Below, piece after piece: positions 27,794 to 30,154 of a stretch of 64,000 bases of DNA. Position 1 is the first letter of the stretch. Each line of letters begins with the position of its first letter. The translations under genes were made by a program, and so were the position numbers. The stretch comes from an uncultured bacterium (lineage in GTDB: Bacteria > Patescibacteriota > Minisyncoccia > Phycocordibacterales > GWA1-40-21), in assembly GCA_963840885.1 (NCBI GenBank), contig CAWJAN010000004.1, forward strand, positions 47,984-111,983, given 5' to 3'. The notes beneath the pieces were generated by a model. That model had not been told where the DNA came from. It searched no databases and was given only the letters and a program-made list of their open reading frames with translations.

Positions 27794-30154
27794 TTATCTG
27801 ACTTGCCAGCCGGCATTGGCATTTAAATCTTTTGTAATTTTTTCCATGATTTGGTTAACCTCTTCATCGGAAAGAGTCTTTTCGTAAGATTGGAAAACTA
27901 TCCTATATGCATATGATGTCTTTTTTAATCCGTCTATATCTTTTGTGAACACATCGAAAAGCCTTGTTTTTACTGCCAGATCTGTCATATCTTTATTTAT
28001 GATAATAAAAACATCTTCCGGCTTCGTGCCATCCGGAGTGAATACTGCGACATCGCGTATTATGAACGGATATTGAGAAATCTTTTTGAATCTGAGCCCA
28101 GAATCGTCGCGTTTTTCCAAATCGTAACTTTTAGGCGCCGGAGCATCTTTTATGGATTCTTCCAAAACAAATTCCGATATATTTTCATCCTTGTTTATCT
28201 TATTAAGCTTCAGCCCCAGCTCGACGGAAAGCTTCTTCACCGCCTCATTCAGCACATCCTTTTCCTTAGGCTTCTTTACTCCTGTAGGATTTTTAACTCC
28301 CAAGGCAAAATTCTTGCTTTCTCCGGATTTGGTGAAAACGTGCCCAAATTCGAAAATCCTTATCTCCGGCATATCTATAAGCTCGGAATACCTGGAATTC
28401 AATTCCAGTGAATTTTTTATTCCATCAGCAAGATTCGTTCTCAAGAATTTCCTTTCCGGAGACATGGGATTTGCAAGCTCTATTTCACCCTTGTCCGTAA
28501 AAGTATAATTCATCGCTTCGGAAAATCCTTCCTTATACAAAATATCCCTGATTTTCTCCTTGTAGTAAAATTCTTTGTCTATGGCTGCCGGTTTTTCAGA
28601 TTTCGGTATTTTTATGTCTTTTATCTTTTCATATCCGTAAATCCTGCCTATTTCCTCGGCTAAATCTTCCTTTATCCTTAAATCGAGCCTCTCGGCTGGC
28701 GCTGTCACCACGAATCTTTCCTGGTTGTCTGACATTCTCCTATAACCTGTAATTTTCCTGAATCTTCCGCTTTCCGAAAGATTTTCTATTGCGACTCCAT
28801 TTTTTAATTTCGAAGAGTGTATGACTTTTCCGCCGCCTAGATATATTCCGCAGTGATCCACTCCTTCTTTTACTTCCTTACCGGGCAAGAATTCGACTGT
28901 CTTGAAATATATCGTTCCTTCACCAGTATTGGAAAAGACGATGTCTCCTGGCTTTATGTCTTTTTCATTTACTTCCTGTCCAAAAACATACTGGTCAATT
29001 GATATGCGCGGTATCTGAACTCCGGCCTGCGCGAAAACATAACCCACATATGAAGAGCAATCGAAGACCTTGGGCGCATCGTAAGAAATGCTGGCTCCTT
29101 TTTTATGCTCAGCGCCGACAAGTTCTTCGGCCAATTTCAAAACCTCGTCCACCGGCTTAACTTTCTTCCATTCAAATCCGAATCTGTCGAAAATATTTTC
29201 TATCTCTTTATCTTTTATTTCCACTCCGATTATATCGCTCGCCTCTTTTGAAGATATGCCGAGCTTATAGGGATTGGAACGCCTCGGATAATTATCAATT
29301 GTCTCGCTGACTTTCGTATCTTTTGTTCCGGCAATTTCGACTATGAGTTTTGTGAGAATTTCCATGGCCTCGCCGCAAAGCTCCGGCGTCAGGTCATTTT
29401 CATATCTCTTTGAAGCATCTGTTTTTATCTTTATCTTTTGAGCGGTTTTTCTTATGAGCGCAGGATTGAAATTTGCCGATTCAAGGACGATATTCTTGGT
29501 ATTCACGTCAAGCTCTGCGTAAGTGCCGCCTTTTATACCTGCAATGGCAAGAGGATTTTTGCCATCCGTAATAAGAAGAATGCTTTCATCTAGCTCTGCT
29601 TCCTTTTTATCGAGAGTCGTTATCTTTTCTCCAGGTTTTGAATTTTTCACCACAATTTCATCTGATCCTAATTTATCCGCATCAAATGCGTGCATGGGCT
29701 GTCCTATCTCAAGCATTACGAAATTTGTAGCATCGACGACATTATTTATCGATTTTTGGCCGAATATCTCGATTTTTTCCTTAAGCCACTTAGGAGACGG
29801 GCCTATGTTCACATTTTCTATTACTCTTTCCATATAGCGCCTGCATAATTTAGGATCATCGATTTTAACGGAAATATTCTTTGAAGTCTTCGATATCTTA
29901 AAATCCTTGAACTCCCTGGAATACATTTTCGGTTTCAATGAAAAAATCGTCCCTATTTCTCGCGCAATGCCCCTGTGGCACAGGCAGCTGTGATTGAGGT
30001 TCGGAGTCGTTTTCATGTCCATCAATACATCTGAATCTTTTTTCTCTACGCCTTCAACTTCGAAAGAATGCATGGTAATTCCTTCCGACAGCTTGTCGGG
30101 CTCTGGAAGTTTTTTATCGAAAAAATCTTTAAGCCAATTGTATGAAGCGATCAT
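27794..30154 (-). CDS. pheT: Phenylalanyl-tRNA synthetase beta subunit carrying an inserted NlpC/P60-like domain
   Basis: B1, B3/B4 ([23 protein letters not shown]), B5 ([24 protein letters not shown]), B6/7 and C-terminal FDX-ACB domains are present. Residues ~332-480 between the two halves of B5 read ..[45 protein letters not shown], an NlpC/P60 Cys/His signature. Confidence 0.9.
   Translation of the reverse strand: [786 protein letters not shown]

Follow-up and report, generated by a model that had tools for sequence, protein, structure and literature searches.

We describe here a beta subunit of phenylalanyl-tRNA synthetase (PheRS) that carries a cysteine-peptidase domain of the NlpC/P60 family within its B5 domain. 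The gene, pheT, lies on the reverse strand of a 64,000-nucleotide stretch of DNA, hereafter the window, which was taken from contig CAWJAN010000004.1 (assembly GCA_963840885.1) of an uncultured, ultra-small bacterium of the Patescibacteriota (Minisyncoccia). The gene and its split domain are arranged as follows:

27794..30154, minus strand: pheT, PheRS beta subunit, 786 residues (open reading frame list, Pfam, TIGR00472)
29159..29269, minus strand: first half of the B5 domain, residues 296-332 (YKLGIS...FEWKKV)
28718..29158, minus strand: inserted P60-type NlpC/P60 (C40) domain, residues 333-479, 147 residues
28619..28717, minus strand: second half of the B5 domain, residues 480-512 (Pfam B5 profile positions 34-67), with D491, D497 and E500 invariant in PheTs

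The host protein is a bacterial PheRS beta subunit: it scores 443.5 bits against TIGR00472 (pheT_bact, an NCBIfam equivalog; cutoff 402.65), its gene adjoins pheS, and it has the B3/B4, B5, catalytic-like module (CLM) and FDX-ACB domains. The domain order is B1, B3/B4, B5 split by the insert, CLM and FDX-ACB. In Pfam terms, B3_4 covers residues 104-276, NLPC_P60 361-472, CLM 524-613 and FDX-ACB 693-786, while the B5 profile covers only the second half of that domain (residues 475-508, profile positions 34-67). An earlier sequence-only reading of the window had called the gene otherwise canonical, which holds for the functional-looking B3/B4, B5, CLM and FDX-ACB domains but not for B2/tRNA_bind, found by neither Pfam nor TIGR00472; the latter aligns with the first residues of the protein and then places its position 158 at residue 41. 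The B2/EMAP-like tRNA_bind domain is missing throughout the clade of the window's PheT, with or without the insert, and PF01588 is present in a few more distant insert-bearing PheTs of ~900 residues (P0097, P0119).

A homologue search of 5.8 billion proteins, whose best 120 matches we analysed, recovered the identical PheT on a 119-kb contig. The insert is missing in 27 of these matches, and alignment with these close relatives set its limits. In the insert-less proteins (~641 residues) the sequence runs FEWKKV-GDQ-FVITVP; in the window's PheT, FEWKKV is followed by the 147 residues from KPVDEV to RRMSDNQE and then by RFVVTAP. The insert thus takes the place of a 2-4-residue beta-hairpin turn of B5. 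The sequence-only reading had located it correctly at 28715-29161 (residues 332-480), with each end one codon too far out. The G+C content of the insert, 0.40-0.45, is in line with that of its flanks.

Profile, fold and triad place the insert in the NlpC/P60 family (PF00877, MEROPS C40), in the P60-like subfamily, with a predicted peptidase activity. The PF00877 profile gives the full-length protein 66.6 bits and the excised segment 72.9 bits (gathering cutoff 23), which bears out the domain that the sequence-only reading had recognized, and the excised segment also matches p60, RipB, RipC and MepS-type models in NCBIfam. The closest solved relatives by sequence are DL-endopeptidases, namely 7cfl Acd24020 (E 8e-15), 4xcm, CwlO, MepS, RipA/B and YkfC-type enzymes. 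Structure prediction gave a confident, folded two-domain unit of B5 and NlpC/P60, a check that the sequence-only reading had proposed, with a papain-like alpha+beta fold whose structural neighbours are again DL-endopeptidases. The NlpC/P60 domain is nested in a surface beta-hairpin of B5, and the two B5 halves close around it to form one rigid B5::NlpC/P60 module. A hairpin of ~20 residues between the GDxxFxNT and DH motifs is particular to the insert family.

Two other enzyme classes were considered for the domain and set aside. The sequence-only reading had allowed for an acyltransferase; for the LRAT/HRASLS type this fails on the residue order (Cys before His, non-permuted), on an LRAT score of 18.1 bits against a threshold of 24.3, and on the DL-endopeptidase neighbours. 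An aminoacyl-tRNA-dependent transferase of the Fem or L,F-transferase type was rejected because the fold is papain-like and not GNAT.

The predicted catalytic residues, which the sequence-only reading had reported as intact, are present in the motifs it quoted and are nearly invariant among the 93 insert-bearing relatives in the best 120 matches:

29057..29059, minus strand: codon of predicted catalytic Cys366 (FDCSS), 93/93 insert-bearing relatives, invariant in stand-alone forms too
28853..28855, minus strand: codon of predicted catalytic His434 (DHCGIY), 93/93 relatives
28817..28819, minus strand: codon of His446, predicted third triad residue, 85/93 His (91%), 5 Tyr, 2 Gln

The triad order of Cys, His and a polar third residue is that of the non-permuted type. 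Around it, Y350, D365, S367, R383, D387, G403-D404, N409, D433 and R473 are 99-100% conserved in the 93 insert-bearing PheTs. In CdCwlT33800 of C. difficile, the L-Ala-gamma-D-Glu moiety of the substrate makes contacts with Tyr229, Asp241, Ser243 and Arg259, and Cys242 and His296 catalyse the reaction (PMC12542765). We infer that these residues correspond to Y350, D365, S367, R383 and C366/H434, respectively. The two enzymes share the spacing from the D/C/S motif to the Arg (17) and from His to His (12), and the assignment of Tyr229 to Y350 is the least certain of those mapped. The mean pairwise distance is 0.42 for the insert, 0.43 for the PheT core and 0.54 for the CLM, and insert distances follow core distances with r = 0.67, as expected for vertical co-inheritance. 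These comparisons show purifying selection on the module as strong as that on the synthetase core.

The architecture is widespread. PF00877 occurs together with PheT domains in 93 of the best 120 matches, at 47-71% identity; their contigs, up to 750 kb long, belong to assemblies of NCBI, JGI, ENA and Logan, and their source labels read Paceibacterota, Minisyncoccia, Taylorbacteria and Yonathbacteria. In NCBI they go under the names 'phenylalanine--tRNA ligase beta subunit-related protein' or 'C40 family peptidase'. An exhaustive HMMER search with the insert alone returned 97 representatives (50% clusters) at E<=1e-30, and 108 of the 167 sequences from the insert searches are PheT-embedded copies. 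Pooled with the best 120 matches, they give at least 190 distinct embedded copies with the same insertion site, from many metagenomes. An assembly chimera was rejected on this ground, the same junctions recurring in at least 190 distinct PheTs from many samples; the ortholog alignment accordingly displays a clean, lineage-restricted insert with conserved Cys and His, and the many independent assemblies that carry it dispose of the doubt that the sequence-only reading had raised. Six proteins of 478-543 residues (P0131, P0140, P0177, P0195, P0215, P0248) start at the B5::NlpC/P60 module and continue into the CLM and FDX-ACB, with no B1 or B3/B4; they may be shortened gene calls at contig ends, or real editing-less or split PheTs.

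The nearest relatives of the insert outside PheT (P0121, P0133, P0199, P0252, P0253) have 3 to 10 tandem NlpC/P60 domains and no B5 frame; P0121, for instance, has 1183 residues and nine Pfam NLPC_P60 stretches. For P0121, the one protein compared, the match falls ~19 residues short of the query, and the family hairpin appears to be missing. Such tandem proteins are possible donors of the insert.

Presence of the insert is patchy among close relatives. On neighbour-joining trees built from the non-insert columns, presence and absence changed 10 times, with 8-13 changes in all 60 bootstraps and at least 21 when the states were shuffled. Some insert-less PheTs are nearest to an insert-bearing PheT on both sides of the site: insert-less P0073 and insert-bearing P0012 are 92% and 84% identical over the two halves. 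The changes of state could be either repeated deletions or allelic exchange. An intein or other mobile element was rejected as the source of this pattern, given that the insert has no splice-junction residues (it starts with Lys-Pro and ends with Gln-Glu, followed by Arg) and that its fold is NlpC/P60 and not Hint. In insert-less proteins the turn almost always reads G-D/E/N-x, a pattern that either common ancestry or selection for a tight turn could explain. We discounted the argument that the insert is ancestral since all deep branches bear it, because the list of the best 120 matches is biased to insert-bearing sequences, the insert adding to the score. The existence of close relatives without the insert means that PheRS works without it. 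The B3/B4 motif GQPxHAFD is invariant in insert-bearing and insert-less proteins alike, on which ground the insert was rejected as a replacement of the editing site.

The module also exists on its own. The insert searches returned proteins of 199-233 residues, on long contigs, that consist only of a B5 domain and the NlpC/P60 insert and keep the catalytic residues. In L005/L006, L007, L120, L121, L122, L123 and L124 (at least five distinct loci) such a gene directly follows, and often overlaps, a gene for a pheS::FDX-ACB fusion of 379-432 residues, and no pheT is found there. The fusion genes lie at L005:6862-8001, L007:6856-8004, L120:3817-4983, L121:2012-3307 and L124:3703-4989; they score 233-236 bits against TIGR00469 (pheS_mito; cutoff 258) and 231-240 bits against the NCBIfam model 'PheS-related mystery ligase SrmL' (cutoff 300). 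The neighbourhood is otherwise as in the window, rpsB-tsf-...-GT2-pheS-X-gyrB. Locus L175 keeps this site even without pheS, as GT2 on the minus strand, the module, a C39-like gene and gyrB, and in L008 the module and a C39-like gene stand as a pair in an unrelated neighbourhood. These loci show that the module is separable from the synthetase, and that in other lineages it is all that is left of pheT. A rough tree of the module places the stand-alone forms in several groups amid the embedded forms, which suggests more than one reduction event. In the stand-alone clade next to pheS::FDX-ACB (P0273-P0280, P0220), the family hairpin is longer by ~20 more residues, for example IIHTDGSYFSQVLGKEVKEEAIRTETLEF (alignment columns ~140-165).

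A different residue pattern accompanies the stand-alone forms: D497 and E500, invariant in PheT, are mostly Asn and Lys there. By UniProt/HAMAP annotation the two residues would be ligands of Mg2+, shared with the alpha subunit; if so, the PheRS-type interface is not kept up in the stand-alone genes. The same loci bear on the view that the insert is a neutral passenger, a decaying relic or an assembly chimera. The patchy presence among close relatives, by which the domain is dispensable for PheRS, would suit such a view; against it stand the shared junctions, the invariance of Cys366 and His434, an insert rate equal to that of the core, and the retention of the module as a gene after the loss of pheT. 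We consider it effectively refuted.

They also bear on the proposal, made in the sequence-only reading, that the synthetase couples Phe-tRNA to a transfer reaction. In this scheme the domain would use Phe-tRNA(Phe) or Phe-AMP: it would either pass Phe, through a Cys366 thioester, to an acceptor (a wall precursor, for instance) or act as an additional editing hydrolase. The domain is physically embedded in PheRS, in at least five distinct loci a stand-alone gene begins right behind a single-chain pheS::FDX-ACB gene and overlaps it, and the wider NlpC/P60 superfamily includes thioester-forming acyltransferases (LRAT/HRASLS). The domain is, however, of the non-permuted hydrolase type with LRAT under threshold, the invariance of GQPxHAFD indicates that editing is not replaced, the insert changes state at least eight times among close relatives, the module twice lies away from pheS (L008, L175), and D497 and E500 are mostly replaced in the stand-alone forms. 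We found no support for the coupling, which is weakened by the insert-less close relatives and by modules without a PheT, and we regard this use of Phe-tRNA or Phe-AMP as very improbable.

Immediately downstream of pheT lies a second gene for a predicted papain-fold enzyme:

27175..27822, minus strand: Peptidase_C39_2-like papain-fold protein, open reading frame of 215 residues (PF13529 39.3 bits, cutoff 24)

Its start is probably the conserved Met11 (MKRILDIPHYSQ), whose ATG at 27790-27792 stands one base past the pheT stop (TAA-T-ATG). Homologues of this partner were scored in every fetched locus with a hidden Markov model built from such neighbours. Of the 41 distinct module loci whose downstream sequence was long enough, 28 have a homologue immediately after the module gene and on the same strand (24/34 loci with the embedded form and 4/7 with the stand-alone form). 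The partner frames start -58 to +110 nucleotides from the stop of the host gene, with one at +527.

Three observations define the association further. First, no partner homologue was found anywhere in the fetched flanks of 84 module-less pheT loci; about 76 module-less control loci, and 4 insert-bearing ones, came from a contig scan with a PheT alignment, in which the matches listed were mostly of distant phyla. Second, the 84 loci include those of five distinct insert-less proteins that are closely related and have the same gene order around them (P0066, P0099, P0071, P0081, P0073), and no remnants of the C39-like gene were detected in insert-less loci; Fisher's test of 28/41 against 0/5 gives p about 0.006, with phylogeny not corrected for. 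Third, in the fetched loci the partner never occurs without the module, whereas the module does occur without the partner. P0060, for example, has the insert and no partner, and its insert-less sisters are also without one. The distribution shows that the module is genetically coupled to a second papain-fold enzyme. Neither this gene nor the stand-alone module figured in the sequence-only reading.

As to the nature of this partner, Q22, C36, H86, S147, H159, G165 and W203 are invariant in 26 homologues, all 26 of which match PF13529, while 18 match Peptidase_C39 and 9 match C70/AvrRpt2. The profile and the papain-type Gln/Cys/His set make it a member of Peptidase_C39_2 (PF13529), with a predicted papain fold. 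A structure model built from a three-sequence alignment was poor, with a predicted local distance difference test (pLDDT) score of 51. Neither PheT or the module nor the partner has an N-terminal signal sequence, as judged by eye, so both proteins should act in the cytoplasm.

A rival possibility is that the substrate of the module and of its C39-like partner is a protein or ribosomal peptide; they might, for example, process leader peptides, take off a peptide or isopeptide tag, or deamidate. Known members of the C39/C70 clan, to which the partner belongs, cleave peptides and proteins, both enzymes appear to be cytoplasmic, and the family hairpin could reshape the groove of the NlpC/P60 domain. 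Yet sequence and fold are closest to the DL-endopeptidases, the residues that hold L-Ala-gamma-D-Glu are retained, and in the loci examined no conserved small-peptide gene stands beside the pair. We judge a protein or peptide substrate to be unlikely, though it still deserves weight.

A more elaborate form of Phe-tRNA coupling would bring in the partner: the phenylalanyl group of Phe-tRNA or Phe-AMP would be loaded onto Cys366 as a thioester and passed to an amine acceptor (a peptidoglycan precursor or a peptide), with the C39-like enzyme acting before or after. We hold this to be more improbable still than the use of Phe-tRNA or Phe-AMP as such. If true, an aminoacyl-tRNA synthetase (aaRS) would here house a new, papain-fold class of transferase that depends on aminoacyl-tRNA.

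Alternatively, the domain might sense or bind a cell-wall peptide on PheRS, and so link translation to the status of the wall, or it might tether a partner, with catalysis secondary. Its location would suit such a role, as B5, a domain of helix-turn-helix, 'DNA-binding-like' type, has been assigned no catalytic role (PMC3275996). The module never lacks its B5 frame, and most stand-alone genes adjoin pheS. However, nucleophile and general base are invariant in more than 100 sequences, and binding-only relatives in the NlpC/P60 family usually lose them; close relatives, moreover, do without the insert. A sensor or tether thus seems to us quite improbable.

The explanation we favour, tentatively and at a little under an even chance, is that PheT carries a cytoplasmic gamma-D-glutamyl (murein-peptide) amidase module that is separable from aminoacylation. 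Cys366, activated by His434 and oriented by His446, would attack an amide bond in a soluble peptide of gamma-D-glutamyl type, most plausibly a peptidoglycan stem peptide or precursor, because the acyl-side contacts are retained and because of the identity of the closest relatives; the C39-like partner would cut a second bond. PheT itself would be a carrier under constitutive expression rather than a partner in catalysis, the domain having happened to insert in an exposed hairpin, and aminoacylation would be independent of the insert. The purpose may, speculatively, be turnover, or salvage of D-Glu and diamino acid in an auxotrophic cell of the Candidate Phyla Radiation (CPR).

Several observations weigh against the murein-peptide explanation. 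The assignment of the substrate rests only on likeness to extracellular wall hydrolases, and a cytoplasmic location is unusual for the P60 subfamily. Residue 350 of the window's own PheT (29105-29107, minus strand) is His, where 92 of the 93 insert-bearing relatives have Tyr in the motif P-Y-K-x-G; by motif spacing, this Tyr probably corresponds to the substrate-contacting Tyr of the C. difficile DL-endopeptidases, an uncertain assignment. The family hairpin of ~20 residues between GDxxFxNT and DH could alter specificity. About one third of the module loci have no C39-like gene nearby; either the partner can be dispensed with, or the genome holds it at another place. Finally, the B5 halves are always kept around the domain and most stand-alone genes directly follow pheS, both of which would also fit a continuing link to PheRS. 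These last two facts do most to keep such a link alive, and those most against it are the close relatives without the insert and the module found away from pheS.

In the window, pheT follows its companion gene closely:

30159..30935, minus strand: pheS, PheRS alpha subunit, directly upstream of pheT (Pfam tRNA-synt_2d 312 bits)

The gap between pheS and pheT is 4 nucleotides, with no small open reading frame in between. In the P0012 locus, a small frame between the two genes encodes a 93-residue MtN3/PQ-loop-like protein, and the insert-less loci L003:5700-5999 and L171:3882-4004 have frames of 99 and 40 residues at this position, with no family match. Upstream of pheS, window positions 30988-33395 (minus strand) encode a PEGA-domain protein (358 residues) and a GT2 glycosyltransferase (512 residues), whose listed frames overlap by ~200 nucleotides. 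A pair of GT2 and an unknown protein precedes pheS in most related loci, in either orientation.

Among known systems, the closest catalytic domains are those of the P60 DL-endopeptidases (C. difficile Acd24020 7cfl, B. subtilis CwlO/LytE, E. coli MepS/Spr), which are secreted or lipoproteins and often have LysM, SH3b or coiled-coil parts that target the wall. The PheT domain differs from them in having no signal peptide, in being nested in a cytoplasmic tRNA synthetase subunit, and in the ~20-residue hairpin before its His motif. The gamma-D-glutamyl-L-diamino acid endopeptidases of the YkfC/AvPCP type (3h41, 2evr, 2hbw) act on free murein peptides; their accessory SH3b domains are N-terminal, whereas the accessory part of the PheT module is a split B5 wrapped around the catalytic domain. 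On the synthetase side, the CP1/INS editing domains and LysX, the LysRS-MprF fusion of mycobacteria, likewise place a second catalytic domain on an aaRS polypeptide, and LysX offers an earlier example of an aaRS fused with a cell-envelope enzyme. Unlike the PheT module, which exists also without the synthetase, those domains work with the aminoacyl-tRNA that their synthetase makes.

The pheS::FDX-ACB genes beside the stand-alone modules have the architecture of human mitochondrial PheRS, a chimera of the alpha catalytic module and B8/FDX-ACB, which a 2010 review described as the only known monomeric aaRS with a class II catalytic module (PMC3275996). They differ from it in being bacterial (CPR) and in being accompanied by a leftover B5::NlpC/P60 gene. 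The window's own pheS and pheT are of the heterotetramer type, unlike the fusions of these relatives. No description of the architecture was found in full-text searches of the literature on NlpC/P60 domains with tRNA synthetases, on CPR aaRSs, on the PheRS B5 domain or on monomeric bacterial PheRS, nor in the AARS Online paper; the databases already hold and automatically name the insert-bearing proteins. What is new is that the domain is nested in B5 and set in a cytoplasmic context, that it has a C39-like partner, and that B5::NlpC/P60 persists as a separate gene.

To our knowledge, accessory catalytic domains on tRNA synthetases are almost always concerned with editing or otherwise related to tRNA. 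A conserved and, to judge from its residues, apparently active cysteine amidase of cell-wall type within the beta subunit of PheRS is a different kind of aaRS accessory domain. Its recurrence, the second peptidase gene and the survival of the module on its own together define a two-gene cytoplasmic system in Paceibacteria, and the related loci reveal bacterial PheRS genes of a single-chain, mitochondrial type. Should the module prove to be tied to Phe-tRNA, this would be new chemistry for an aaRS; if its substrate is a murein peptide, the system would bear on the supply of D-Glu and diamino acid in these auxotrophic, host-dependent bacteria.

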